A stretch of DNA of 64,000 bases from Candidatus Levyibacteriota bacterium (GTDB lineage Bacteria > Patescibacteriota > Microgenomatia > Levybacterales > UBA12049), in NCBI GenBank assembly GCA_963716145.1, contig OY970292.1, positions 965,404 through 1,029,403 of the forward strand, in the 5' to 3' direction. Shown here one piece after another: positions 2,783 to 58,769 of this stretch (position 1 is its first letter; each line of letters starts with the position of its first letter). Position numbers and translations under genes: made by a program. Under the pieces are notes generated by a model. It searched no databases, was not told where the DNA came from, and saw only the letters and a program-made list of their open reading frames with translations.

Positions 2783-4345
2783 ATGGACGAGAATGTAGTA
2801 TTTAATCCAAACGAGCCGAACACGCAAAATACAGCTCAAGGCGCGGGTGTGGATCAGCCTGAGACCGTGACTCCTCAAGCGCCTACAGTATCAGAGTCTG
2901 TCACTAGCGTCGATCCGGCTTTGTCATCTACGCCGGATTCGGCTGAGAACGCAGGACAAGTTTCTTCTACAGATTCGTCAGGCTCACTACAGGAAGGCTC
3001 AGAGGAAGCTCAACCAAGCGAACCGCCTCCACCAATCCGCTCAGGTATACTGAGCAGTAGGATTTTTAAAATTATTATAGGCATAGTTATTTTGATTGCT
3101 ATAATTTTTGCTGTTGTCCTTTTTTTGCCGAAAGGAGCGGATAATAAAAAAGCTAAATTGGTTTGGTGGGGATTGTGGGAAGATCAAGCAGTTATGCAAT
3201 CTCTAATTGCTGACTTTCAAAAAGATCATCCGAACATTACTGTCGAGTACGTAAAGCAAGACCCCAAACAATATAGAGAGAAACTTCTTGCCAGGGTAAA
3301 TAATGGAACAGGGCCTGATATTTTCCGCTTTCACAATACCTGGGTTCCTATGCTGTCAAATGTATTGCTGCCTTTCTCCTCAGATGTAATTTCTACAGCT
3401 GAGTTTAAAAAGAATTATTATCCAGTTGTGCAGAGAGATTTGGTTCAAAATGGAGGGATTTACGGAATACCATTGGGCGCTGATTCCTTAGCCCTTTTTG
3501 TTAATACGGATATTTTTAAAGCAGCAGGAAAACAGCCTCCTCAAACTTGGGACGATTTTCTAACTACAGCAGGAGACCTGACAGTAAAAGAGGCGGATAC
3601 AAACAAGATAAAAACTGCGGGCGCAGCATTGGGCACATACGGAAATATTACACACGCTCCTGACATAATTTCTTTGCTTTTTCTTCAACAAGGAGTGGAT
3701 ATGAAAAAATTTCCAACCTCTGCAGATAAAGAAACAGAAGCCATGAATTATTACACTTATTTTGCAAAAGGGGATAAAAACGTATGGGATAATACGCTTG
3801 ATGAGTCAATTCTTTCTTTCTCCCGCGGTAGCCTTGCTATGTATATAGGTTATTCTTGGGACATCTTTAGAATTCAAGCACTAAATAAGGATCTCCCTTT
3901 TAGTACTCATCCCGTACCCCAGCTGGTAGGTCAGCGCGCAAATGTCGCAAGCTATTGGGTAGAGGGCGTTTCCTCAAAAAGTCAAAATCAAAAAGCTGCA
4001 TTACTCTTCATGCAGTATTTAAGCAAAAAAGAGACAGCTCAAAAATTTTACAGCGCAGTTAGCAAAACTCGTGCTTTTGGAGAACCTTATGCTCGAGCCG
4101 ATCTGGCCGGGACTTTGAAGGACAATAAACTTTTATACCCATTTGTAACTCAGCTGGAGAGTGCTTCTTCTTCAATTTTTGCAAGTGATACAAATGATGG
4201 AGAAGGGGGAATCAATTTCCTTAGCAATACTTATCTTAGAGATGCGGTAAACTCAATTATAAACGATGGCAGTTCTGCCCAATCGGCAGTAGAAACGCTC
4301 GATAAAGGAATTGACCAGGTTTTTCAGAAATATGAAATACATTGA
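2783..4345 (+). CDS. extracellular solute-binding protein (ABC transporter SBP, family-1-like), membrane-anchored, with a P/S/T/E-rich N-terminal tail
   Basis: 520 aa: an ~85-aa low-complexity N-terminus, a TM helix (IIIGIVILIAIIFAVVLFL), then an SBP-like domain (KLVWWGLWEDQAVMQSLIADFQKDHPNITVEYV…). No permease or ATPase gene is adjacent. Confidence 0.65.
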   Translation: MDENVVFNPNEPNTQNTAQGAGVDQPETVTPQAPTVSESVTSVDPALSSTPDSAENAGQVSSTDSSGSLQEGSEEAQPSEPPPPIRSGILSSRIFKIIIGIVILIAIIFAVVLFLPKGADNKKAKLVWWGLWEDQAVMQSLIADFQKDHPNITVEYVKQDPKQYREKLLARVNNGTGPDIFRFHNTWVPMLSNVLLPFSSDVISTAEFKKNYYPVVQRDLVQNGGIYGIPLGADSLALFVNTDIFKAAGKQPPQTWDDFLTTAGDLTVKEADTNKIKTAGAALGTYGNITHAPDIISLLFLQQGVDMKKFPTSADKETEAMNYYTYFAKGDKNVWDNTLDESILSFSRGSLAMYIGYSWDIFRIQALNKDLPFSTHPVPQLVGQRANVASYWVEGVSSKSQNQKAALLFMQYLSKKETAQKFYSAVSKTRAFGEPYARADLAGTLKDNKLLYPFVTQLESASSSIFASDTNDGEGGINFLSNTYLRDAVNSIINDGSSAQSAVETLDKGIDQVFQKYEIH

Positions 4346-23621: not shown

Positions 23622-24152
23622 ATGGGAATTTCTGAAGGCGATCCACAGAGCAGGTTTAGAGGAAGGTTTCGGCGTGGTATTAATCCACTTAAAAAATGGA
23701 GAAAAGACTTTGGTCCTAGACTTGAAGAGCATGAAAGAGAAAAAAGATACGGAATTATGGCTGGAGATTTAACGACAGACGTTTTTATTGGAATAGTTGC
23801 TGTTTACGATAGCGTTGCAGGCACCAACAAAGCAGAATATTACAGAACCCACCCAGCTGAAGTAGAGCTTAAGATAAAACCAGTACTCCAAGGTCTAATA
23901 ATCAGTGGAGACGCAGATTGGAGGTTTAAATCTAGTTTATCAGAAAATTCAAAATTAAGTATAATGCCTGCTGGTCTGACAGAAGGTGGCGATAGGCTAT
24001 TAAAATTTAATTTTGAACCACAAGAAGATACTGAAAACGGGGATAGCGAAGAAGGGAAAGATATGCAGGCAATATTTAGAAGTAGGTTAGAGAAATATCT
24101 TTCTGAGCAGGGACTTGCAGTTGAGTTAAGATATCCCCATACTCTTGGATAG
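23622..24152 (+). CDS. hypothetical protein
   Basis: 176-aa ORF with no recognisable motif; the true start may be the internal Met at ~23757. Confidence 0.3.
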   Translation: MGISEGDPQSRFRGRFRRGINPLKKWRKDFGPRLEEHEREKRYGIMAGDLTTDVFIGIVAVYDSVAGTNKAEYYRTHPAEVELKIKPVLQGLIISGDADWRFKSSLSENSKLSIMPAGLTEGGDRLLKFNFEPQEDTENGDSEEGKDMQAIFRSRLEKYLSEQGLAVELRYPHTLG

Positions 24153-24182
24153 AGATTGCTAAGTGAGTTGAGAATGAATATT

Positions 24183-25133
24183 TCAGGCCTTGATGAAGTA
24201 GATTATAAATACAACCAGCAATGCCCATATGACCACGGCTGTAAGTAGGGCGCGGTCTGAGAATAGGACTCGCTCAGGTGACTCTCCCTCATGTTTTTCA
24301 TAAATCCGCTGCAGATAACGCATAATCCCATATACAACGGGAATTATTGTGATCATCAGCCATTTTCGCTGTAGATAAGTGCCCAAAATATCGGCCGGAA
24401 TTAGATCGGTTGTAAATTGGCGTCCCTTTGGATTCTCAAGAAACGTAAATAACGAATAAAAGACAAAGGCACTCGTTGCAAAAATGGAGAGGTAAACATC
24501 CAAAAGCTTTTCTGTATAATGCGATAGAGTTTTGCGAGTTGTTGAGATTTGTGCTGCGGTAGCTCCGGCAAGAAGCGTTAGCTCTGAACGCCTTTTTCCA
24601 ATAGCCAGAAAAAGCGATAGGGCAATTGTTGTCAAAAGAAGCCATGCTGAGATATGAAAACCGCTTACAGCCTCTCCGGCAAGAACACGCAGAATATAGC
24701 CTCCTGCAAGCGTTAGGATATCTACAATTTCAATTTGTTTGAGAAGCGCCGAATAAGCAACATGCAGCAGGAAGTAAACAACGGTAATTATAAAAAAAGT
24801 AGGAGCAATTAAGAAACTTAAATAAAATGAACTAAGTGTCAATATTAAAGCAATAATTGTAGCTGTTTTTATGGAAATATTTTGATTAGCAAGAGGACGG
24901 AATTTTTTAAATGGATGAAGTCTATCTTTCTTAACATCAAAAATATCATTTATTACATAAATAGCGCTACTCATAGCGCAAAAAACAATAAATCCATAAG
25001 AAACTTCTTGAATCAAGACAGGGTCAAGAAGCTGCCCGCTAAATATTAGTGCTGCAAAAATAGCAAGATTTTTAATCCATTGGCGAGGACGCAAGAGACG
25101 TAAAGTGTCACGAAATTGTTTATTCATTTTCAT
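24183..25133 (-). CDS. UbiA-family prenyltransferase, decaprenyl-phosphate phosphoribosyltransferase (DPPR synthase)-like
   Basis: RPRQWIKNLAIFAALIFSG…NDIFDVKKDRLHPFKKFRPLA matches the NDxxDxxxDRxHPxKxxRP motif of Rv3806c-type enzymes. Multi-TM. Internal Met chosen as start. Confidence 0.7.
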   Translation of the reverse strand: MKMNKQFRDTLRLLRPRQWIKNLAIFAALIFSGQLLDPVLIQEVSYGFIVFCAMSSAIYVINDIFDVKKDRLHPFKKFRPLANQNISIKTATIIALILTLSSFYLSFLIAPTFFIITVVYFLLHVAYSALLKQIEIVDILTLAGGYILRVLAGEAVSGFHISAWLLLTTIALSLFLAIGKRRSELTLLAGATAAQISTTRKTLSHYTEKLLDVYLSIFATSAFVFYSLFTFLENPKGRQFTTDLIPADILGTYLQRKWLMITIIPVVYGIMRYLQRIYEKHEGESPERVLFSDRALLTAVVIWALLVVFIIYFIKA

Positions 25134-26205
25134 TTGGATTTTCAGTAACTTTATGTAAAAAAAACAGTCCTCCTCCAGCAATTACAATTAACATTATCAA
25201 AGCAAAAACTTTACTACGGCTTGTTAAAGTTAATGAAATTAAACCTAATATAGCAGAGACACACCAATAAAACAATGCAACTTGTCTTTGGGAATAACCA
25301 AGCTTCAAAAAAATATGATGCAAATGCTTGTTATCACCTTTAAACGGTGATTTTTTATTAGCAATTCGCCTAATAATCGTAAACACAAAATCGACAAGCG
25401 GTACACCCATAACGAGCACTGCGGTTGCCAATTTGGCACTGGACAAAATTGAAACAATTCCCAAAAGCAGATATATAGTTGTCGCTCCATATCCAGGGAA
25501 AATTTTGGCTGGATAAAAATTGTGGATAAGAAATCCAATTGCTGCGCCTGCAATAATAAAGGATAATTTTACGTCTAAGAATCCAGTCCCGGCACCGGTT
25601 GGATTAAGCCTAAGGCTTAGTAAGCCGATTACAATTGCTGATATCGCAACAATGCCGGGCATTTGTCCGTCAACTCCTTTACTCCAATTTATCATGTTCA
25701 TTACCCAGATAAGCCAGAGAACTGATAATACATCAGAAAGAAGAAAATTAAAGATTGGAAGCCTCATAGCATCAAGATGTAAGATTCCACCCCCAAACGG
25801 ATTGGTGATAAAGTGGATACTTACACCACTCCCGACAACAATGACTGCCGTCGCAATATTTATTAAAAGACGCAGGTATGGTGAAACATCCCGAGATTTA
25901 GAATTTAATTTATCGTCAACCACTCCAATAAGAAGAGCAAGAAAAGAAGCAAAAAAGAGCGCGATTGTAATACTGGTTTTTGGCAGAAAAATAATTCCCG
26001 CAATGAGAATTCCAATAAAAAGTGGAATTCCTCCTCCACGTGGAATGGGTTTGGTGTGTATCATTGCGGGATGTTTATGAAGTTTGGGATCATCAACTAT
26101 CCTAAGTTTTTTAAGAAAAAAAATAGCTATCGGGGTTGCAAGAGCTGTTCCGGTGAGCGCGGTTAAAAAAGGTAAAATAAAGAAATCGTTTGGAAAATTC
26201 ATCAC
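25120..26205 (-). CDS. glycosyltransferase family 4, WecA/MraY-like polyprenyl-phosphate hexose/HexNAc-1-phosphate transferase
   Basis: Polytopic, with a DD motif (VVDDKLNS), NMINWSKGVDGQMPG (≈NxxNxxDGxDGL) and …HNFYPAKIFPGYGATTIYLLG…. Confidence 0.7.
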   Translation of the reverse strand: MMNFPNDFFILPFLTALTGTALATPIAIFFLKKLRIVDDPKLHKHPAMIHTKPIPRGGGIPLFIGILIAGIIFLPKTSITIALFFASFLALLIGVVDDKLNSKSRDVSPYLRLLINIATAVIVVGSGVSIHFITNPFGGGILHLDAMRLPIFNFLLSDVLSVLWLIWVMNMINWSKGVDGQMPGIVAISAIVIGLLSLRLNPTGAGTGFLDVKLSFIIAGAAIGFLIHNFYPAKIFPGYGATTIYLLLGIVSILSSAKLATAVLVMGVPLVDFVFTIIRRIANKKSPFKGDNKHLHHIFLKLGYSQRQVALFYWCVSAILGLISLTLTSRSKVFALIMLIVIAGGGLFFLHKVTENPNENE

Positions 26206-26555
26206 ACTAGCAAATATATAGTTCTTATTATAAAAATAAATGAAAGAATAGACGCCAAAAATGTAGTAATGCTAAGTATACGGGAAAGAAGAGGAGTCTT
26301 TTCATATAAGCGGGTTGATACTAAAAAATTAAAACTTAGAAATACAATTGTGAGAAAAACAGGAAGGAATATTGCGGGTTTAATTCCAAGTCTTTTTTCT
26401 CCCCAAGGCATCTGATTGAAAAGGGGCAATAGAGGGGGAAGAGAAAAGTAGAAAATTCCAATTGATATAATTTCCAGTATTAAAAAAATACCTGAAATAA
26501 TCAAGCACCACCTAGTAATTTTATCTTCAAAAGATAATTTAATAGTTCCGCTCAT
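26202..26555 (-). CDS. small hydrophobic membrane protein, hypothetical
   Basis: ORF in a minus-strand gene string. Start trimmed to an internal Met to limit overlap with the upstream gene. Confidence 0.35.
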   Translation of the reverse strand: MSGTIKLSFEDKITRWCLIISGIFLILEIISIGIFYFSLPPLLPLFNQMPWGEKRLGIKPAIFLPVFLTIVFLSFNFLVSTRLYEKTPLLSRILSITTFLASILSFIFIIRTIYLLV

Positions 26556-28047
26556 AAAAAACAACGTCTTTAAAAACAAATTTAGTACTATACATTGACA
26601 GGTGGAATGGAAAAGGGCGAGATTCCGGTAAGGTAATAACATATTTAGGTTTTGCCAAATTTAGGGCTGTTTGGGTTTGCTCAAGCCCTCCTTTATATTG
26701 TCCTATGTGGTACGAAACAGCATATTTACCGGGAGGAAGCTTTTCAGAAAGCGCATAAATTTGTGCGGTATCGCCCCAGAGGAATACATTGTCTGCGGAG
26801 CTAGTGTGTGTTTTGATGAATGAAGCAATCTCATAGTCCCTAGGGGTTTTTTGGTCAAAAAATGATTGGTAGGAAATTACATCCTTCTTATTCATTAAGA
26901 AAGACAGGGCATTTTCGTAATAACGGAGTGATTTATTTAGGTTAGGTTTAAAAACTGAGCTAAGTAGAATTATTGTACAAACAAGCGTTAGCAAATAAAT
27001 AGATTTATCCCGCTTTTTGTTTGTTGCCGACAGCAGTCCTACCAAAAGGCATAGGCTAGGTACTGTTACAAGGGTATAGTGTGTATAAGGACGTCCTGAG
27101 AAGAAAGTATTGAAAAGGGAAAAAACGAGCCACAGTAGAACAAACATAAAAGCTTTGTTTAGTTGTTTTCTTCTCCAAAAAATAATCAAAACAGCTGTGC
27201 TCAAAAGAGCTAGCTTGAGTATCAAAAGCCCCTGTGGAATAATTAGTTTATTACCATAACCAACATATCCGACGTTTGAGAAAAATACCGCTGTCGTGAA
27301 ATCCGAAAATGCATGATTGAATAGAAAATATAAAAAAGTAATAATAATTGGAAATATAAATCCTAAAAATATTGGGTGGATAGGCTTTATTTCATTTTTT
27401 AAAAATGATTTTAGTTTAGAAAAATTACTTGGTAATTTATCCGGAGCATTAATAATAATTATAAAAATACAAAATGCGGCAAGATCAAATACAGCAACGA
27501 TTTTAAATAAAAATGCAATTCCTAGAAGAAAACCGGCAGCAGGAAGAATTAAGAATTTAGAATTAAGAATTAAGAATTGACGTTTAGAACTTAGAGAATA
27601 TACGAGTAATCCGGCTGTTGTAGTAAGTGGGAGCATAAAGTTCTCAGCGTTTGCAATATTTCCTTCCAGAATTGGAGTAGCAAATAGCAAAACAAAAAAC
27701 AGTGTTGAAATTATACTTGCTTTTAATTGTTTAAAGAGCAGTAGAGTAAGATAGAAAAATGACCATATGGCGAGAACCCCGCTAATTAAGGAAAAAAGCC
27801 TTACCTGAAATTGATCACCGTGAAAAAGGGAATAGACTATGTAAAGAAGTGGTGGTTTATTATCCCAAATTTGAACATACAGTAAACGGCCTTTATTTAT
27901 GGCAATCCCCAAAACCTGATAGATTCCTTCATCGCCATACCAGTTAGGTTCTATAAGGGAGGGAAGTCGAAGGAGGAAGAATATAAATGATAGCCCCAAT
28001 ATATACCAGAATGTTTTGTTTCTTTCTAATTTGGCAAGTATTTTCAT
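26539..28047 (-). CDS. GT39/GT83-like (ArnT/PMT-type) polyprenyl-phosphate-sugar-dependent membrane glycosyltransferase
   Basis: 502 aa with ≥10 TM helices and an N-terminal periplasmic-loop acidic motif (NWYGDEGIYQVLG) typical of GT-C enzymes. Contains the heptanucleotide microsatellite. Confidence 0.55.
   Translation of the reverse strand: MKILAKLERNKTFWYILGLSFIFFLLRLPSLIEPNWYGDEGIYQVLGIAINKGRLLYVQIWDNKPPLLYIVYSLFHGDQFQVRLFSLISGVLAIWSFFYLTLLLFKQLKASIISTLFFVLLFATPILEGNIANAENFMLPLTTTAGLLVYSLSSKRQFLILNSKFLILPAAGFLLGIAFLFKIVAVFDLAAFCIFIIIINAPDKLPSNFSKLKSFLKNEIKPIHPIFLGFIFPIIITFLYFLFNHAFSDFTTAVFFSNVGYVGYGNKLIIPQGLLILKLALLSTAVLIIFWRRKQLNKAFMFVLLWLVFSLFNTFFSGRPYTHYTLVTVPSLCLLVGLLSATNKKRDKSIYLLTLVCTIILLSSVFKPNLNKSLRYYENALSFLMNKKDVISYQSFFDQKTPRDYEIASFIKTHTSSADNVFLWGDTAQIYALSEKLPPGKYAVSYHIGQYKGGLEQTQTALNLAKPKYVITLPESRPFPFHLSMYSTKFVFKDVVFYERNY
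27544..27578. repeat. heptanucleotide microsatellite (AAGAATT)x5, one TAGAATT variant, inside the GT39-like coding sequence
   Basis: Units at 27544-50, 27551-57, 27558-64 (variant), 27565-71 and 27572-78. On the coding strand they encode …LILNSKFLILNSKFLIL…. Confidence 0.85.
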
Positions 28048-28048
28048 T

Positions 28049-29542
28049 TCAGACTTTTTCTGTCACTTTATATTCTAGTCTTTTATTGAACATTAGTTGA
28101 GTATGAGAAATAAGAGCAGGCAAAGAGGATAGGAAAAATCCGACTAAAGGCATAAGAAGAAATTCAAACGGGAAGAGCAATTTTTTGTAGAGTGGTAAAT
28201 TTTCTCCCTCAGGCCTATTCTTGTATTCGAGATACATCATGGCAATAAGTGCAATTAGACAAAAGTTTAGAATGAAACCGGCCATACGGGGAAGACTAAA
28301 ACCTAAAGCAGTACGTGAATACACGGGATTGACAATCGCCATAACATTCGCCGCGATGGTAATTATAAACCAATTGGTGGGCCAAAGAATGTGGTCCAGC
28401 AATACATGGTAAACTATCCCTGTTTTTCGCATAAATGGCATATCCGGTACAGTAAACCACCATTTGATAAAAAGCGGGTTATCAGAAACTCCCCATGACC
28501 AGCGTCTTTCCTGAATATATTTATTTTTGAGACTTTTGATATAGCTTGTTGATTGGGCTGCATCCATAGAAGTTTTCAGAAATATCGGCTCAACCCAAAT
28601 CTGTCCTTTCTTCATGAAAAATGATTTGAAGAATATTCGGTAGTCCTCAGGAATAACATCAGTATCCCAATAACCGACTTCTTTTAGGAGTTTAAACGAA
28701 AGGGAATATGTTGACTGGGTAATAAGTCTATCTCCCTGAACCAGAAGTGCAATACGCCAAAGGCTTCCAAAAAATGAAAGTATACGCGTGGGAGCAGGTA
28801 CCTGCCAAGTATTGGTGTGAAATACAACTGCCGACTGCCAAAATTTGTTATAGCGCTTTTTGTCTCCAAGAAATTTATAAGTGAGATAGGAAAAATATTC
28901 CTTATGGAAAAGCGAATCCGCATCAACTGATGATATAGTCGCGTAGTCAATGTCTAAATTACTTTTTCTAAATAGTTTGTCATAAGCAAGCCGCCCTGCA
29001 TATGCTTCGTTGGATGATTTACCTTTTATTTCTCCCGGAACATCAGGGTGATAGGTCGCAAATATACTCCCAAATATAGGGCTGAATTCCCTGATCAATA
29101 TTGCGGCACGTATTTTGGCTTCCGGCTCTCTTTCTTCCATGGCAAGTACAATATGCAAATTTTTTCTAGGAAAAGATTGTTTTGCCAGTACATTGAGAGT
29201 TATTCTAACTTTTTCCACCTTTTCTTTGTAGTTGGGGATTATAAGTATATGATTTACCTTTGATACATTTTTTAATTTTTTTGATTTGGCAAGCCAATTT
29301 TCTTTTTCAGCAATCTTAATTTTTTTGGATGCCAGATAAGCAGTTCTTACTAAAGAAAATGATTTATAAAACCAATAAACATCAAAAAATAAAATAAAAT
29401 ATGCAAGAAGAGTTGGGATAAAAAAAGATCCCCAAATGGGGAAAAGGATTATTGTCCAAGCCATAAATCCCGGGAAAAGCTCAAGCAATCTTCTTGTCTT
29501 AATTGGGTAACGGCTGAAGACTTTGTTAAAGAAGTTGGTCAT
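28049..29542 (-). CDS. membrane-embedded glycosyltransferase family 2-like protein
   Basis: N-terminal TM helices, central GT-A-like region with acidic motifs (…ISSVDADSLF…), C-terminal TM helices. Confidence 0.5.
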   Translation of the reverse strand: MTNFFNKVFSRYPIKTRRLLELFPGFMAWTIILFPIWGSFFIPTLLAYFILFFDVYWFYKSFSLVRTAYLASKKIKIAEKENWLAKSKKLKNVSKVNHILIIPNYKEKVEKVRITLNVLAKQSFPRKNLHIVLAMEEREPEAKIRAAILIREFSPIFGSIFATYHPDVPGEIKGKSSNEAYAGRLAYDKLFRKSNLDIDYATISSVDADSLFHKEYFSYLTYKFLGDKKRYNKFWQSAVVFHTNTWQVPAPTRILSFFGSLWRIALLVQGDRLITQSTYSLSFKLLKEVGYWDTDVIPEDYRIFFKSFFMKKGQIWVEPIFLKTSMDAAQSTSYIKSLKNKYIQERRWSWGVSDNPLFIKWWFTVPDMPFMRKTGIVYHVLLDHILWPTNWFIITIAANVMAIVNPVYSRTALGFSLPRMAGFILNFCLIALIAMMYLEYKNRPEGENLPLYKKLLFPFEFLLMPLVGFFLSSLPALISHTQLMFNKRLEYKVTEKV

Positions 29543-29556
29543 AGTTTTAAATAAAT

Positions 29557-30366
29557 TTACTTTTCTAATTTAATAAATAATTTATATACATTATCATCCG
29601 TTTGCTGCGCCAATTTTTCCAGTGTTACACCTTTTAATTTAGCTATAAATTCTGCTGTAATTATAGCATGTTTGGGTTCATTTCGCTTGCCTCTGAAAGG
29701 AATGGGAGTTAAATAAGGGCTATCTGTTTCAATTACAATCCGCTCGAGCGGTGTGAGCTGGGCAAGCTCCGTGAGAGTAACTGTTTCACCGGGGGCTAAG
29801 CCTTTGTAAGTAATATTCCCGTCAAACCCGATATAGAAACCCATCTGCAGAGCAGACTTCAGAGTTTCTGTATTGCCTGCGAAACAATGGAACATGCCTG
29901 GGGTGTTTAGCAGCAGATGTTTATGCTCTTTCAAAATTTTTAAAATGTCCGCTCCTGCATGGCGGTTATGAATTTGAAGAGGAAGTTTCAATTTATGTGC
30001 GAGTTCTATTTGCTCAATGAATATCTTTTTTTGAAGGGTAGGATCTACTATACCGTTTGATTGATATGAATAGTAATCCAATCCTATTTCGCCAATTGCA
30101 AGAACTTTTTTATTTACAGCGAGTTTTTCAAGTTGCTCAATCCAATCCGATTTGAGGTCATGCTTGTCGGCATGATGTGGATGAACACCTATAATTGCAA
30201 ATATTTTGTCATATTTTTCCGCAAGTTCTACTGCTTTTTGGCTTGATTCAATTCTGGTCCCGACGTTTATAATTTTGGTTAAACCAGAGGAAAACGCGTC
30301 CTTGATGACTGAATCATAATCACTTTCAAAAGCTTGAAATTGTAAATGGCAATGGACATCTATCAT
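29557..30366 (-). CDS. tatD: TatD-family metal-dependent hydrolase/DNase
   Basis: MIDVHCHLQFQAF… and …GVHPHHA…IGEIGLDY… histidine motifs. Confidence 0.8.
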   Translation of the reverse strand: MIDVHCHLQFQAFESDYDSVIKDAFSSGLTKIINVGTRIESSQKAVELAEKYDKIFAIIGVHPHHADKHDLKSDWIEQLEKLAVNKKVLAIGEIGLDYYSYQSNGIVDPTLQKKIFIEQIELAHKLKLPLQIHNRHAGADILKILKEHKHLLLNTPGMFHCFAGNTETLKSALQMGFYIGFDGNITYKGLAPGETVTLTELAQLTPLERIVIETDSPYLTPIPFRGKRNEPKHAIITAEFIAKLKGVTLEKLAQQTDDNVYKLFIKLEK

Positions 30367-30470
30367 AAATAATTTTCAATTTTCAATTTTCAATTTGAAA
30401 TAAAATCTAAATTTTAAAAATTACGTCATTGAAAATTCAATGAAAATTTCAAATTTCGAATTAAAAATTA
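30367..30470. repeat. AT-rich intergenic motif family member (TTTTCAA x3 … TTGAAAATTCAATGAAAATT)
   Basis: aattttcaattttcaattttcaatttgaaa…cattgaaaattcaatgaaaatttcaaatttcgaattaaaaatt. Shares a 20-mer with 57231-57250. Confidence 0.7.
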
Positions 30471-30499
30471 TAATCGTGGAAACAAAGATTTCTGTGAAA

Positions 30500-31906
30500 C
30501 TATTTTTGGCCCTTAAACTGCTTTGTTATTTTGTTTGAAGTTGCGGGCATGAACGGCTGGAGAAGAATTGCCATTTCCTGTATTTGATCCACGCAATGGG
30601 CAAGAACACTTTTACATCGTCCAGGATCAGTTTTTAGCAATTCCCAAGGCTTCTCCTCATTAATAAATTGATCAACCTTTGTAATTTTCCTCCAAATAAA
30701 AGCCAGCGCGTCATTGAATTTGTATTCAGAAAGTGCCTTGGCGTACGTTTCATCAGTTAAAACGTGTTCTGCAGTTCCGGTTTTTGATCCCATTTCTGTA
30801 AAATCGGTTGTTTCACACAATTTGGCAACTCTGGCAACAAGATTCCCCAAGCCATTGGCAAGATCAGCATTATAAACTTCTTTAAACCTGCTGATTGAAA
30901 AATCTCCGTCATCAAACGGCGGAATTTCTCGGAGTAGATAATATCTGAGAGCATCGGTTCCATATTCTTTAACAAGATCAAAAGGATTTACAACATTTCC
31001 CAGACTTTTACTCATCTTTTGTCCCTCGCTTTGTATGAATCCATGGATCAAAATTTGTCTTGAGGGTTCAACTCCGGCTGACATCAGCATAGCCTGCCAC
31101 ATTGCTGATTGCTGTCTAAGATTGTCTTTTCCTGCCAATTGAATAACAGGCCAGTATGATTTGAACTTTTGCAAATCTTTTGGCCAGCCTATTGCCGAAA
31201 TATAATTTACCAACGCGTCAAACCAAACATACATCACATGGTCGTCATCAGATGGGACTTGTACACCCCAAGGCATTTTGTTTTTAAGACGGGATATGCT
31301 GAAGTCCTCAAGTCCGTTTTTCACAAATGATTTTATTTCATTAAAGCGGAAATCAGGAAGTACAAAGCTTGGTCTTTGTTTGTAGAGATCCAATAGTGGC
31401 TGTTGATATTTTGAAAAGCGGAAAAAGTAATTTTCCTCATCAATAATCTCTACATCAAGATTGGGGTGGACCGGACATTTGCCGTCCGTAAGTTCCGAAT
31501 CGGTTTTCTCAAGCTCGCAACCTACACAGTATTTTATTTTATACGCTTTTTTGTAAATATCTCCGTTTGCTTCGCACCTTTTCCAGAATTCCTGCGCCGC
31601 TTCTTTATGAGCAGGATTTGTGGTTCTGATAAAATTTATGTCATCGACTAGACCCAATACTTCTTTGAGGTCTTTAAATTTTTCCGCGTACTCATCAACA
31701 TATTTTTGCGTATCTTTTTTACTTTCCTGAGCTTTTCTGTGGATTTTCAATCCATGCTCATCTGTGCCCGTGTTGAAAAAAACGTCATGACCCTGAGCTC
31801 TCAAATTACGCACGATAGTATCTGCCTGAACTATTTCAAGAGCAAAACCGATGTGAGGATCAGCGTTAACATAAGGAAGAGTGGTGGTGATATAAAATTT
31901 GGCCAT
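30500..31906 (-). CDS. metG: methionine--tRNA ligase (MetRS), short form without a C-terminal tRNA-binding domain
   Basis: …TTTLPYVNADPHIGFALEIVQADTIVR… (HIGH), Zn-knuckle cysteines (CVGCE…C), KMSKSLGN. Confidence 0.9.
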   Translation of the reverse strand: MAKFYITTTLPYVNADPHIGFALEIVQADTIVRNLRAQGHDVFFNTGTDEHGLKIHRKAQESKKDTQKYVDEYAEKFKDLKEVLGLVDDINFIRTTNPAHKEAAQEFWKRCEANGDIYKKAYKIKYCVGCELEKTDSELTDGKCPVHPNLDVEIIDEENYFFRFSKYQQPLLDLYKQRPSFVLPDFRFNEIKSFVKNGLEDFSISRLKNKMPWGVQVPSDDDHVMYVWFDALVNYISAIGWPKDLQKFKSYWPVIQLAGKDNLRQQSAMWQAMLMSAGVEPSRQILIHGFIQSEGQKMSKSLGNVVNPFDLVKEYGTDALRYYLLREIPPFDDGDFSISRFKEVYNADLANGLGNLVARVAKLCETTDFTEMGSKTGTAEHVLTDETYAKALSEYKFNDALAFIWRKITKVDQFINEEKPWELLKTDPGRCKSVLAHCVDQIQEMAILLQPFMPATSNKITKQFKGQK

Positions 31907-32004
31907 ACTAGCTAGAAAATTGTACCAGAGGCAGGGGACTTAGACAAGGAGTTAAGCATGAGGAGGTTTTTTCTTCAAAAACGAACCATAAGACAAATTT
32001 AAAT

Positions 32005-34274: not shown

Positions 34275-34325
34275 CGAAGTTCAAAATTCAAATTGCAAAA
34301 TTCAAAATTACAATTAAAAATTAAA
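34275..34325. repeat. AT-rich intergenic motif family member (CAAAATTCAAA / AATTAAAAATT)
   Basis: gttcaaaattcaaattgcaaaattcaaaattacaattaaaaattaaaaatg immediately upstream of grpE. Confidence 0.6.
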
Positions 34326-34326
34326 A

Positions 34327-34827
34327 ATGACTAAAAAAGACATAAAAAATGAAGAAGAGAAGCTTGATGAAACAGAAGAAATTGAGGAAAACACAGAAGA
34401 CAGTGAACTTGAACAATTAAAAGTAAAGCTGGAATCAGCAGATGACAGCTACAAAAGAGCGCTTGCTGATTATCAAAATTTGCAGAAAAGAGTAAGTGAT
34501 GAAAGACGAGATCTGATATTGGCGGCCAATAGAGATTTGCTCTTGCGAATTCTTTCTGTTTTGGATACACTGGTTCTTGCAAACAAGCATGACGAGAGCG
34601 AAGGTTTGAAAGTCGCTATTAAGCAATTTGAAGATATACTAAAGTCAGAAGGTGTTACAAAAGTAGAAACTAAAGGATTAGAGTTTGATCCTCAATTTAT
34701 GGAAGCTGTAGCAATTGATTCTGGGGAGGAAAATAAAGTTTTAGAAGAAATGCGTTCAGGATTTATGTTAAACGATAAAGTTCTGAGACCGGCGCAAGTG
34801 AAAGTAGGTTCTGCAAAGCAGAATTAG
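34327..34827 (+). CDS. grpE: nucleotide exchange factor GrpE
   Basis: Acidic N-terminus, coiled coil (…DSYKRALADYQNLQKR…) and a C-terminal beta domain. Confidence 0.85.
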   Translation: MTKKDIKNEEEKLDETEEIEENTEDSELEQLKVKLESADDSYKRALADYQNLQKRVSDERRDLILAANRDLLLRILSVLDTLVLANKHDESEGLKVAIKQFEDILKSEGVTKVETKGLEFDPQFMEAVAIDSGEENKVLEEMRSGFMLNDKVLRPAQVKVGSAKQN

Positions 34828-36764: not shown

Positions 36765-36850
36765 CAATAATTACCAATTTCAAATATCCAATTCCCAAGA
36801 CGTTTATTTGATATTTGCAATTTGAAATTAGAAATTTGTAATTCAAAAGA
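36765..36850. repeat. AT-rich intergenic motif family member (CAATTTCAAAT / GCAATTTGAAATTAGAAATTTG)
   Basis: Low-complexity A/T run with CAA/TTG periodicity between dnaK and dnaJ. Confidence 0.5.
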
Positions 36851-36883: not shown

Positions 36884-37762
36884 ATGGCAGACAAAAATTA
36901 CTACACAGTTTTAGGCGTTTCCAAAACTGCTTCAGCGGACGAGATTAAAAAAGCTTACCGTAAGCTTGCTTTGGAATTTCATCCAGACCGCAACAAATCA
37001 AAAGAGGCAGATGCTAAGTTTAAAGAAGTCACCAAAGCATATGAAGTGCTATCAGATGAAGGGAAAAGAAAAACTTATGATCAGGTAGGCCACGCGGGAT
37101 TTGAGCAGGGAGGATTCGGCGGAGCCGGAGGTGGGCCATTTGGCGGCGGCCAGGGTGGGCAGCAAGGCGGACAATACGGACCATTCAGTTATACCTATTC
37201 ACAAGGGGGAAATGGGGCAAATTTTGATTTTGGAGGATTCTCCGACCCATTTGAGATATTTGAACAGTTTTTTGGCGGTGCGTCTCCTTTTGGCCAACGT
37301 CAGCGCCGTCCTGCGTATTCAGTAAAAATTAGTTTTGATGAAGCAGTGCATGGAGTTGAAAAACAGGTAAGTATAGACGGAAAATCACAGAAAATAAAAA
37401 TTCCTCCGGGTGTGGACCGCGGACAACGGATGCGTTTTGGGGATTATGATGCGGTGATAGATGTTACACCTGACAAGCGTTTTGCCAGGGAGGGCTATGA
37501 CATTATAACTGAGAAGGAAATTTCATTCCCCCAAGCAGCACTTGGAGGAGAAATATCGGTTGACACAGTTGATGGCGATGTGAAAATTCGTATTCCTGCC
37601 GGGACACAGCCTGAGACATTGATCCGGCTCGCCGGGCGGGGAATAAAACACCTGCAGTCAAATGGACATGGTGATCACTACCTAAAAATAAAAGTTACAG
37701 TCCCTAAAAAATTGAACAAACAACAAAAAGAGCTGCTCGAACAGCTTGAAAACGCTAAATAA
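36884..37762 (+). CDS. dnaJ: DnaJ-family co-chaperone (J domain + G/F-rich region + C-terminal substrate domains; no CxxCxGxG zinc finger)
   Basis: J domain with HPD (…[13 protein letters not shown]…), a G/F-rich linker, and no cysteine repeats, giving type II/CbpA-like architecture. Confidence 0.8.
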
Positions 37763-57144: not shown

Positions 57145-57281
57145 TAGAATTTTCAATTTGGAATTTTCAGTTTTCAATGAAACCTGCCTGCCGGCAGGCA
57201 GGTATAAATTTTAAATGTTTAAAAATTAATTTTTGAAAATTCAATGAAAATTAAAAATTGTAAATTAAAAATTAATAGCTT
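57145..57281. repeat. AT-rich intergenic motif family member flanking the palindrome (…TTTTCAATTTGGAATTTTCAGTTTTCAATGAAA[palindrome]…TTGAAAATTCAATGAAAATTAAAAATTGTAAATTAAAAATT)
   Basis: Contains the 20-mer ttgaaaattcaatgaaaatt that also occurs at 30447-30466. Confidence 0.7.
57182..57203. repeat. copy 1 of a 21-nt GC-rich motif containing the 20-nt perfect palindrome cctgcctgccggcaggcagg (acctgcctgccggcaggcaggt)
   Basis: Exact 20-nt self-complementary sequence in an AT-rich spacer; a second copy lies at 60739-60759. Confidence 0.9.
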
Positions 57282-58769
57282 ATGGCAAAAACAAATACAA
57301 AGGCAAGTGCAACTTCTGATAACCATTTCCCCCCAGTAGTCGCCGTATTGGGACACGTAGATCATGGCAAAACCACACTTCTTGATGCAATCCGCAGGAC
57401 TTCAATTGCAGAGGGGGAAAAGGGCGGAATTACACAAAAGATAGGCGCCTCAAGCGTTGAAATTGTCCATGATGGACAGAAAAGAAAAATTACATTTATT
57501 GACACTCCGGGACACGAAGCATTTGGACATATGCGTGGACGCGGCGCTCAAGCTGCTGATTTAGGTTTACTAATAGTATCCCTGGCTGACAGTGTCAAAC
57601 CTCAGACAAAAGAAAGCATTGCTATCCTTCAGGAGTCAAAAACTCCATTTATTGTTGTTCTGACGAAGTCAGACCTTCCTGATCTTATTCCTGAAAAAAG
57701 CAAAAAAGATCTCGCAAAAGAAGGTATTTTGCTTGAGGGATATGGGGGAGATGTGCCTGTTATGGAAGTCTCAGCCAAAACAGGTAGCAATATCAAAGAA
57801 CTTTTGGATTTGATTCTTCTGATGTTTGATTTACATAAAAAGCCGGAATACGCGAAAGAAATTTCAGCTAGCGCTGCCCTTCAGGCCATAGTTATTGAAG
57901 CCAAAATGGATCCAAGAGCGGGTTCAAAAGCAACGGTTATTGTAAAAAATGGAAGCGTTCAGGCGCGGGACATGCTCAAAGTTGACGGGCAGATCTTTAA
58001 AGTCAGGATGCTTATGACCGATCTGGGTAAACCGGTTGAGAAAGCAACAGTTGGAGATGCAGTTGAAGTGTTTGGATTTGCAAAAGTTCCACAGGTTGGA
58101 AGCATTATTGCTCATGAGTCCGCGTCAAACGCGACTGCGGCCGAGCAAGCCTCAGTTCCGGAACAGTTAAGCCGTGAAGTTGTATACAAGAGAGAAGAAG
58201 AGCACGCGGGGCTTTCAGTAATTCTGGTAGCTGATACCCAAGGCTCACTCGAGGCTATTGCCAATTCACTACCTGAGGGAATAAGGACCATGACCAAAAA
58301 AACCGGTGAGGTGACTGATGCTGATATTTTGCTTGCGAAGTCAACCAGCAGCATTATTTTGAGTTTTAATACTAAGCTCAAGCCTGAGATTATAACATTG
58401 GCAATGAGTGAAAAAGTGCTCCTTCGCAACTATGAAGTTATTTATGAGCTGCTGGATGAGATAAAAGATGCTCAGGAAGGTAAGCTGCTTTCCCAGATGG
58501 AGCAGATTTATGGAACCGCAAAAATTTTGGCCAAATTCCCTTTTGAAAAAACATTTGCGTTTGGAGTCTCGGTTAGTGACGGACGGGTGGCCAAAGGAGA
58601 TAAGGTACGGATTACACGCGGAAGCGATACAATCGTTGAAACCACAATTAACTCTCTTCGGATAGGTAAAAACCCAACTTCAAAGGTAGAGAAAGGAAAT
58701 GAGGCAGGATTGGTTTTAACAAACCCCCTTGACATTTTGGTAGGAGATGTGATACTATCCCATAGTTAA
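57282..58769 (+). CDS. infB: translation initiation factor IF-2, short form (G domain + domain II + C-terminal domains; no N-terminal extension)
   Basis: VVAVLGHVDHGKTTLLDAIR (G1), DTPGHEAF (G3), …VVLTKSDL… (G4). Confidence 0.85.
   Translation: MAKTNTKASATSDNHFPPVVAVLGHVDHGKTTLLDAIRRTSIAEGEKGGITQKIGASSVEIVHDGQKRKITFIDTPGHEAFGHMRGRGAQAADLGLLIVSLADSVKPQTKESIAILQESKTPFIVVLTKSDLPDLIPEKSKKDLAKEGILLEGYGGDVPVMEVSAKTGSNIKELLDLILLMFDLHKKPEYAKEISASAALQAIVIEAKMDPRAGSKATVIVKNGSVQARDMLKVDGQIFKVRMLMTDLGKPVEKATVGDAVEVFGFAKVPQVGSIIAHESASNATAAEQASVPEQLSREVVYKREEEHAGLSVILVADTQGSLEAIANSLPEGIRTMTKKTGEVTDADILLAKSTSSIILSFNTKLKPEIITLAMSEKVLLRNYEVIYELLDEIKDAQEGKLLSQMEQIYGTAKILAKFPFEKTFAFGVSVSDGRVAKGDKVRITRGSDTIVETTINSLRIGKNPTSKVEKGNEAGLVLTNPLDILVGDVILSHS

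Follow-up and report, generated by a model that had tools for sequence, protein, structure and literature searches.

Introduction

To our knowledge, phase variation through repeat slippage is documented almost only in pathogens adapted to a host, which escape immunity and phages by means of it. In Neisseria, phase variation of the glycosyltransferase gene pglE is under the control of a heptanucleotide repeat (PMC7157529). Here we analyze a heptanucleotide array that lies inside the gene of a predicted GT-C-fold membrane glycosyltransferase, in a 64,000-nucleotide (nt) stretch of the genome of a Candidatus Levyibacteriota bacterium (contig OY970292.1, positions 965,404 to 1,029,403; this whole stretch is called the window), a member of the candidate phyla radiation (CPR), or Patescibacteria. 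On balance we favor the reading that the tract is a coding simple-sequence-repeat (SSR) switch, that is, a contingency locus, within this GT-C gene, and we are largely confident that the orthologous heptamer site in the gene family is an active slippage site that yields ON and OFF alleles.

The closest parallel is pglE, the gene for the pilin-glycan galactosyltransferase of Neisseria meningitidis and Neisseria gonorrhoeae. Like the locus studied here, it carries an intragenic 7-nt unit and encodes a glycosyltransferase that takes part in building a lipid-linked glycan; one unit more or less shifts the frame and turns the enzyme off, and natural isolates have both ON and OFF alleles, which are seen here in a related species. 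The differences are that PglE, from a proteobacterium adapted to its host, is of the GT-B type and soluble or peripheral, whereas the present protein is a predicted 15-helix GT-C membrane protein of a CPR bacterium; that pglE tracts are longer and vary widely in unit number, whereas the arrays described below have three to five units and the one in the window is interrupted; and that switching rates have been measured in Neisseria, whereas switching of the window locus is proposed from its sequence.

Two further systems invite comparison. Haemophilus influenzae has heptamer repeats in the promoters of hmw1A and hmw2A, as well as an intragenic (AATTTTG)14 in hmw1a of strain PittAA that is associated with a frameshift (PMC2651432). 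These repeats resemble the present ones in being A/T-rich heptamers, in the intragenic frameshift of hmw1a and in the use of comparative genomics of strains as evidence; they differ in having 13–38 units, in lying mostly in promoters, where they modulate transcription, and in targeting adhesins, not glycosyltransferases. In Campylobacter jejuni, poly-G tracts are reported in glycosyltransferase genes for the capsule and the lipooligosaccharide (PMC6321876, PMC8437040). The likeness is that coding SSRs switch surface-glycan enzymes and that a locus is conserved across the genus as a member of the 'phasome', while the C. jejuni tracts are homopolymers and the GT-C site has been kept over a far deeper divergence (45–70% amino acid (aa) identity), with replacement of its unit.

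The proposed mechanism itself is textbook; what differs is a GT-C enzyme encoded beside a DPPR-synthase-like gene, tracts that are short and constrained, a CPR bacterium as the organism, and deep conservation of the site with turnover of its units. CPR bacteria, or Patescibacteria, are uncultivated, have tiny genomes and few regulators, and depend on surface contact with their hosts, and the finding bears on how they vary their surface. Full-text literature searches gave, among the matches listed, no paper that connects phase variation with CPR bacteria or Patescibacteria; if the site proves to be an ancient contingency locus of the lineage, a tentative reading set out below, it would be the first SSR phase variation documented for Patescibacteria, and a mutable site conserved to an unusual depth.

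The heptamer tract and its reading frame

On the plus strand, the tract at 27544–27578 reads AAGAATT AAGAATT TAGAATT AAGAATT AAGAATT, five heptamers of which the third is a variant, as an earlier note on this DNA had described it. Tandem Repeats Finder reports it with period 7, 5.0 copies, 92% matches and a score of 63, the highest of any tandem repeat in the window. Self-similarity at a lag of 7 nt was then scored (match +1, mismatch −3) and set against 100 dinucleotide-preserving shuffles of the window: the tract reached a lag-7 score of 20, whereas the maxima of the shuffles had a mean of 8.5 and the largest was 12. Only two lag-7 runs in the window score at least 12, namely the tract and a second array at 30371–30396, and no run of that score was found at lags 2–6, 8–13 or 15, such runs being confined to lags 7 and 14. 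The identical GT-C gene is present in an independent Logan assembly of run ERR11593400. Sequence, Tandem Repeats Finder and shuffles therefore agree that the tract is real, lies at these positions and exceeds chance.

In the sense direction, the tract starts at positions 2–3 of codon 157 of 502 and is read through the codons CAA TTC TTA ATT CTT AAT TCT AAA TTC TTA ATT CTT, giving the peptide Q157 FLILNSK FLIL168. A perfect (AATTCTT)n with n of at least 3 has a TAA in each of the three sense frames. The frame is open in the window because the variant base at 27558 turns the sole in-frame TAA into AAA (K164), and this variant is the smallest change that allows the ON frame to be open. When units were removed or added in silico, a stop appeared at codon 159 after the loss of two units and at codon 164 after the loss of one or the gain of one or two; the open reading frame (ORF) remained open after the loss of three units, and the gain of three, modeled with perfect AATTCTT copies, introduced an in-frame TAA. 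The proposal that the gain or loss of a single unit would frameshift the gene is thus borne out, and both neighboring frames close at once. Two features expected of a contingency gene are therefore seen here: the 7-nt unit, which is not a multiple of three, lies inside an ORF, and a one-unit change in silico abolishes the full-length product. With five units the gene is in frame and would be ON; the loss or gain of one unit would place a TAA inside the array, at codon 164, and the OFF product would be a fragment of about 163 aa that lacks about 10 of some 15 helices and the C-terminal domain.

The 502-aa product matches the Pfam family PMT_2 (PF13231; 29 bits, cutoff 26.1, E = 1.5e-6); profile searches gave no NCBIfam match for it, and a search of PDB sequences with a family profile returned nothing meaningful. 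Across 30 orthologues, D39/E40 in the motif 'WYGDEG' and the motif 'EGNIANAENF' are invariant. An AlphaFold model (30 orthologues) has a mean predicted local distance difference test score (pLDDT) of 86.7, a predicted template-modeling score (pTM) of 0.87 and about 15 helices. Foldseek matched this model to AglB, STT3, PglB, ArnT, PMT/Pmt4 and AftA, all with a probability of 1.0 (AglB 7e9s, E = 4.5e-7; ArnT 5f15 and 5ezm, template-modeling score about 0.5), the identity to these solved members being 12–17%. Judged from the model, the protein is a GT-C-fold glycosyltransferase. Its earlier description as 'GT39/ArnT-like' holds at the level of the GT-C fold; at 12–17% identity no CAZy family is assigned.

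The first extracytoplasmic loop would contain the acidic motif D39/E40. According to the model, the tract comes after five predicted helices and encodes most of the basic loop 154–163 and the start of the helix 164–181, so that its earlier placement 'after the first periplasmic loop or transmembrane bundle' was roughly right. The loop is probably cytoplasmic, according to the positive-inside rule, since every orthologue has many K, R and N residues there.

Natural ON and OFF alleles in a related species

With the N-terminal 157 residues as the query, short proteins were retrieved. One of these, P0129 (169 aa), ends in ESKIQNTKYSLLPDFY followed by a stop, and is encoded on the 60-kb contig L172 (k141_1720103, ENA analysis ERZ27237563, a name in the style of a short-read assembler). 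The array of L172 reads GAAAG CAAAATA CAAAATA CAAAATA CAG and thus has three units; the N-terminal frame stops seven codons past the array, and the remainder of the gene can be read undamaged in a different frame, every conserved motif being present. Addition of one CAAAATA in silico gave a 494-aa ORF, the product of which is 100% identical to P0244 (494 aa), a protein that three further samples from this accession series encode. Their contigs L176, L177 and L178 carry (CAAAATA)4 and an intact gene; the analyses with four units are ERZ27237587, ERZ27237541 and ERZ27237538. Over the 6.5 kb compared, L172 differs from L176, L177 and L178 by 32–45 substitutions (about 99.4% identity), and the sole internal indel is one 7-nt CAAAATA unit. 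L053, likewise with four in-frame units, shares 89% aa identity with this species. The ON and OFF alleles that the earlier note had proposed to look for are therefore found in the orthologue of a related species, as (CAAAATA)3 OFF in L172 and (CAAAATA)4 ON in L176–L178.

A second OFF allele, P0189, is probable, judging from its peptide: there is a real stop inside the contig and then a following ORF, and the tail HANSCRFSPLFGFSF is the frameshifted reading of MLILAGFLLFLGFL, starting right after the NYTL of a CTATACG-type array. Together with the conserved arrays described below, the one-unit ON and OFF alleles support the idea of phase variation for the gene family; for the window organism itself, phase variation would follow by extension from these relatives. 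Such a slippage site, conserved and with both allelic states, is also a marker of population heterogeneity that can be tested with reads.

Several other candidates were set aside. L173 (P0159) matches L041 exactly as far as a point within an ACAACAC-type array and then, from about position 3465, continues in unrelated sequence, with the contig ending 260 nt after the break; this may be an insertion or an assembly break and is not usable as a variant. L174 (P0154; 2001–3400), a contig of long-read style with an in-frame TAA and several frame changes, was rejected as a pseudogene or the result of read errors. The frameshifted tails of the fragments P0183, P0194, P0207 and P0136, which end near the loop, were not counted, as they could be sequencing errors. 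No unit-number variants were found in exact-protein look-ups and 90% clusters with the window protein and ten homologues as queries, these being identical-sequence look-ups that cannot show variants; all nine contigs of P0007 are identical.

Heptamer arrays in orthologous genes

We scanned 151 unique orthologues from Levyibacteriota, with 43–71% aa identity to the window gene, which came from the best 80 of 370 loci in species-representative genomes, the best 80 of 350 metagenome loci and several look-ups, and counted runs with a score of at least 9. Of the 22 lag-7 runs, 21 lie at gene nt 440–540, and the 22nd is in the same loop, displaced by an insertion. At the same site, lags 4–6, 8–13 and 15 gave 0–1 runs; the lag-9 runs lie outside the loop, and those inspected (in the first 81 genes) sit in a conserved VGYVGY peptide region. 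The comparison with related genomes that had been suggested earlier thus shows recurrent heptamer arrays at one and the same place in the gene.

In 958 kb of orthologous loci with their flanks, 20 of the 24 strong lag-7 runs (score of at least 12) are at the GT-C loop. This concentration, together with the shuffles of the window, rules out a genome that is heptamer-rich in general as the source of the strong arrays. The short tandemly repeated repetitive (STRR) sequences of cyanobacteria, reportedly described by Mazel and colleagues in 1990, are tandem heptanucleotide repeats that are likewise said to mark a bacterial lineage; they are said to be dispersed, mostly intergenic and multi-copy, with fixed units, whereas here most strong runs occupy one coding site and the units are clade-specific. 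An STRR-like dispersed repeat family is thereby also ruled out.

The unit AATTCTT of the window is shared with L082–L090. CAAAATA is found in perfect arrays of 4.1–4.4 units in L053, L120 and L126, and also in L115 and L139; CTATACG in a perfect array of 4.6 units in L030, and in L147, L002 and L074; AAATACT in L091, L101, L103, L113 and L013; AAATCAT in L107 and L110; CAAATTT in L162; and CAATCTT in L039. The units are therefore clade-specific yet homogeneous inside each array. Arrays of 3–5 units are present in about 30 of the 144 loops that could be parsed, with two-unit remnants in many more, and the arrays of L030, L053, L120, L126 and L176–L178 comprise 4.1–4.6 uninterrupted units. Between its anchors, the loop is 22–60 aa long and highly variable in sequence.

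Purity of the arrays and replacement of the unit

Codon usage was compared within gene pairs: among identical residues, the fraction encoded by the same codon in the loop was set against the expectation from the pair outside the loop, with a correction for each amino acid. The same codon was used at 12 of 14 residues for the window and L090 (expected 5.6, P = 3e-4), 13 of 13 for L030 and L147 (expected 5.0, P = 9e-7), 10 of 11 for L030 and L002 (expected 4.0, P = 3e-5), and 13 of 16 for L120 and L126 (expected 7.2, P = 2e-3), while the test was not significant for some pairs with degenerate arrays. Resampling of synonymous codons according to the usage of each gene never reached the observed lag-7 purity, in 20,000 trials each for the window tract and for L030, and rarely matched the purity of the other arrays. 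These data indicate that the purity of the arrays is upheld at the DNA level, beyond what the protein needs.

The closest full-length relative, L091 (71% aa identity), has an array of the AAATACT type, and the more distant L082–L090 (58%) have AATTCTT, with a stop-avoiding AGA where the window has AAA. Since differences in the unit between species are common to all units within a species, such replacement of the unit between close relatives carries the signature of concerted evolution, that is, of repeated gain and loss of units, as read from the present-day sequences. Because single-unit changes frameshift the gene, and arrays of 7–8 units were never seen, the simplest route for this turnover would have been through transient OFF alleles.

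A switch, a mutational hazard or another element

In the window organism, the length of the tract would change reversibly by slipped-strand mispairing during replication, and we think it rather likely that the tract switches the gene reversibly and at a rate that matters biologically. That rate is probably lower than in classical long tracts, because the longest uninterrupted run is 2.86 units; the interruption itself is there because an in-frame TAA must be avoided.

A number of observations weigh against this reading. The longest uninterrupted run in the five-unit window tract is 20 nt, which falls just under the most permissive threshold applied to candidate SSRs in H. influenzae, at least three uninterrupted heptamers, and the heptamer tracts with experimentally demonstrated phase variation are, at 13–38 units, far longer (PMC2651432). 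The sequences of the window organism in the collections searched are this genome and the Logan assembly with the identical gene. About 110 of the 144 orthologues have no array or only remnants, no array exceeds about 5.3 units, the loop length is near-constant within clades, and the closest relative by its N-terminus, L175 (80% aa identity), has a decayed array only. One OFF allele in four assemblies is equally expected from recurrent deleterious mutation. The GT-C gene has 370 matches among species-representative genomes and is nearly universal in the lineage, so that the OFF state may simply be deleterious. Finally, the loop is read in frame in each of the 160 top-ranked orthologues, no frameshift at the tract being found among these 160 best loci; since selection by top tblastn score drops frameshifted genes, this in-frame excess is biased and carries little weight. 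The sole frameshift in that set, in L167 (1501–3029), lies near aa 70–109 and could be a sequencing error or a pseudogene.

In its evolutionary form, the switch reading holds that the site is a contingency locus of great age, which selection for switchability has preserved throughout Levyibacteriota, with a site older than the splits at 45–60% identity, with turnover of units and with mixtures of ON and OFF cells. We advance this tentatively, as a possibility that falls somewhat short of being probable. A mutable site kept over very deep divergence bears on whether mutability itself can be selected.

The points listed above would be accounted for in part if the array were a mutational hazard and no switch, which we regard as unlikely but, as the main rival reading, worth serious thought. 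Under such a scheme, an old array in a tolerant cytoplasmic loop slips, harmful frameshifts are purged and the OFF state brings no benefit; the array would survive as slippage homogenizes it and any peptide with a basic and then a hydrophobic part is acceptable in the loop. The high variability of the loop in length and sequence is in keeping with this, as are its acceptance of even palindromic insertions in frame, the shortness of the arrays and their absence or decay in most orthologues, the near universality of the gene, and the finding of one clear OFF allele against three ON alleles in that species, with intact genes elsewhere. However, a tolerant loop should gain repeats in multiples of a triplet, which would be harmless, at least as readily, and the lags of 6, 9, 12 and 15 give 0–1 runs compared to 21 for lag 7. 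Near-perfect arrays also persist across saturated synonymous sites, which calls for either selection for purity or frequent fixed changes in length; given that one-unit changes frameshift the gene and that 7–8-unit arrays are never seen, such fixation implies that OFF intermediates survived. Replacement of the unit without loss of the frame, and an OFF allele in L172 without secondary lesions, argue in the same direction.

It is very improbable that the array is instead a functional nucleic-acid element, such as a protein-binding array, an mRNA element or a target for insertion or recombination, with an incidental effect on the frame. Conservation at the nucleotide level does exceed that of the protein, the operon has another heptamer array in its leader, small palindromic elements have inserted into the arrays of several orthologues or at their site, and in one contig the break falls within an array. 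Nevertheless, the unit sequence differs by clade and only the periodicity is kept, which makes a sequence-specific binder unlikely, and the RNA of the tract is unstructured (z = +0.86). No Rfam family reached its gathering score in 24000–32000, and a scan for promoter-like sequences, as would mark an internal promoter, showed no excess over shuffles. Last, a chance low-complexity stretch or a mis-assembled repeat, as might be suspected from the 39% G+C of the window and the many weak A/T-rich repeats listed by Tandem Repeats Finder, has a negligible probability and is ruled out by a score far above those of all shuffles, the identical gene in the Logan assembly and homologous arrays in dozens of independent assemblies.

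Gene neighborhood and proposed pathway

The gene order is methionyl-tRNA synthetase (MetRS), TatD, a 497-aa protein, GT-C, a 117-aa ORF, GT4 and UbiA, and it is kept in relatives (Table 1). The GT4 protein matches ECA_wecA with E = 1e-25, which is below the family cutoff, the match of the 497-aa protein to TIGR03937 (E = 2.6e-4) is far below the cutoff, and no family match was found for the 117-aa ORF in profile searches. A WecA-like GT4, a DPPR-type UbiA enzyme and a weakly GT2-like protein as neighbors agree with the 'lipid-linked glycan cluster' of the earlier note.

Table 1. Features discussed in the text, with their positions in the window
Feature	Coordinates	Strand	Remarks
UbiA-family decaprenyl-phosphate phosphoribosyltransferase-like enzyme	24183..25181	-	PF01040; NF008978 214.9 bits, cutoff 207
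GT4 polyprenyl-phosphate N-acetylhexosamine-1-phosphate (HexNAc-1-phosphate) transferase, WecA/MraY-like	25120..26205	-	PF00953, E = 7e-21; same operon as GT-C
117-aa small membrane ORF	26202..26555	-	overlaps the GT-C 3' end by 17 nt; same arrangement in L082, L091 and L176
GT-C-fold membrane glycosyltransferase gene (predicted), 502 aa	26539..28047	-	Pfam PMT_2, invariant motifs, fold matches
Heptanucleotide array, proposed slippage tract	27544..27578	-	sense AATTCTT AATTCTT AATTCTA AATTCTT AATTCTT; QFLILNSKFLIL; gene nt 470-504, codons 157-168
Interrupting base	27558	-	T on plus strand, A in sense; first base of codon K164 (AAA); canonical unit would give an in-frame TAA
497-aa membrane protein	28049..29542	-	directly upstream of GT-C gene, position kept in relatives; weak GT2 (PgaC-like) similarity
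Second perfect heptamer array	30371..30396	-	sense AAATTGA x3.7 ((AATTTTC)x3.7); ends 5 nt before TatD start codon (30366)

The UbiA-family enzyme probably makes a lipid-linked pentose donor, and its profile match suggests a donor pathway for polyprenyl-phosphate ribose or arabinose in a CPR bacterium. With this DPPR-synthase-like neighbor, the donor of the GT-C enzyme is suggested to be a polyprenyl-phosphate pentose. The cluster would thereby resemble the module of WecA, DPPR synthase and GT-C enzymes in actinobacterial arabinan synthesis. In the OFF state, one step of an envelope glycan pathway that depends on polyprenyl-phosphate pentose (WecA-like enzyme, DPPR-synthase-like UbiA and GT-C) would be removed, and the cell surface may be altered as a result, a phage receptor or a structure for attachment to the host being examples. 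If so, the switch could be a form of bet-hedging with which ultra-small episymbiotic bacteria withstand phages or attach to hosts. The locus of a core envelope glycosyltransferase also offers a handle on which surface glycan matters.

Further observations on the loop and on other heptamer tracts

Palindromic elements resembling miniature inverted-repeat transposable elements (MITEs) lie in frame in the GT-C loop, at about gene nt 450–600, in L113, L016, L097, L079, L131 and L148, and these genes are open. The elements of L113, L016 and L097 are of the type GTCATTGCGAG...CTCGCAATGAC, and L131 carries the palindromic CCTGCCTCGCCGGCAGGCAGG within its array.

In a clade with short loops (P0183, P0180; L050, L057, L152), the loop has shrunk to ...QKKFFLAG..., a peptide that implies adjacent homopolymer runs of A and T. 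Judged from its peptide, P0183 is shifted in frame exactly at this probable A/T homopolymer run, which might be a homopolymer equivalent of the heptamer array or else a sequencing error.

TatD, in front of which the second array lies, is the first gene of the string of genes that holds the GT-C gene. This array may be another element of variable length or else a motif of the leader. The stretch 30426–30462 was noted together with it, and TTTTGAA-like heptamer repeats are found in the same TatD leader of L014, L091, L047, L051, L021 and L079.

Three weaker, A/T-rich tracts of period 7 lie directly upstream of ORF starts: 34280–34328, (TTCAAAA)x7.1, before the start at 34327; 36769–36843, (AATTTCC)x4.3 with (ATTTGAA)x5.4, before that at 36884; and 57205–57275, (TAAATTT)x4.1 with (AAAATTA)x4.1, before that at 57282. 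Altogether, period 7 accounts for 10 of the 43 Tandem Repeats Finder rows of the window.

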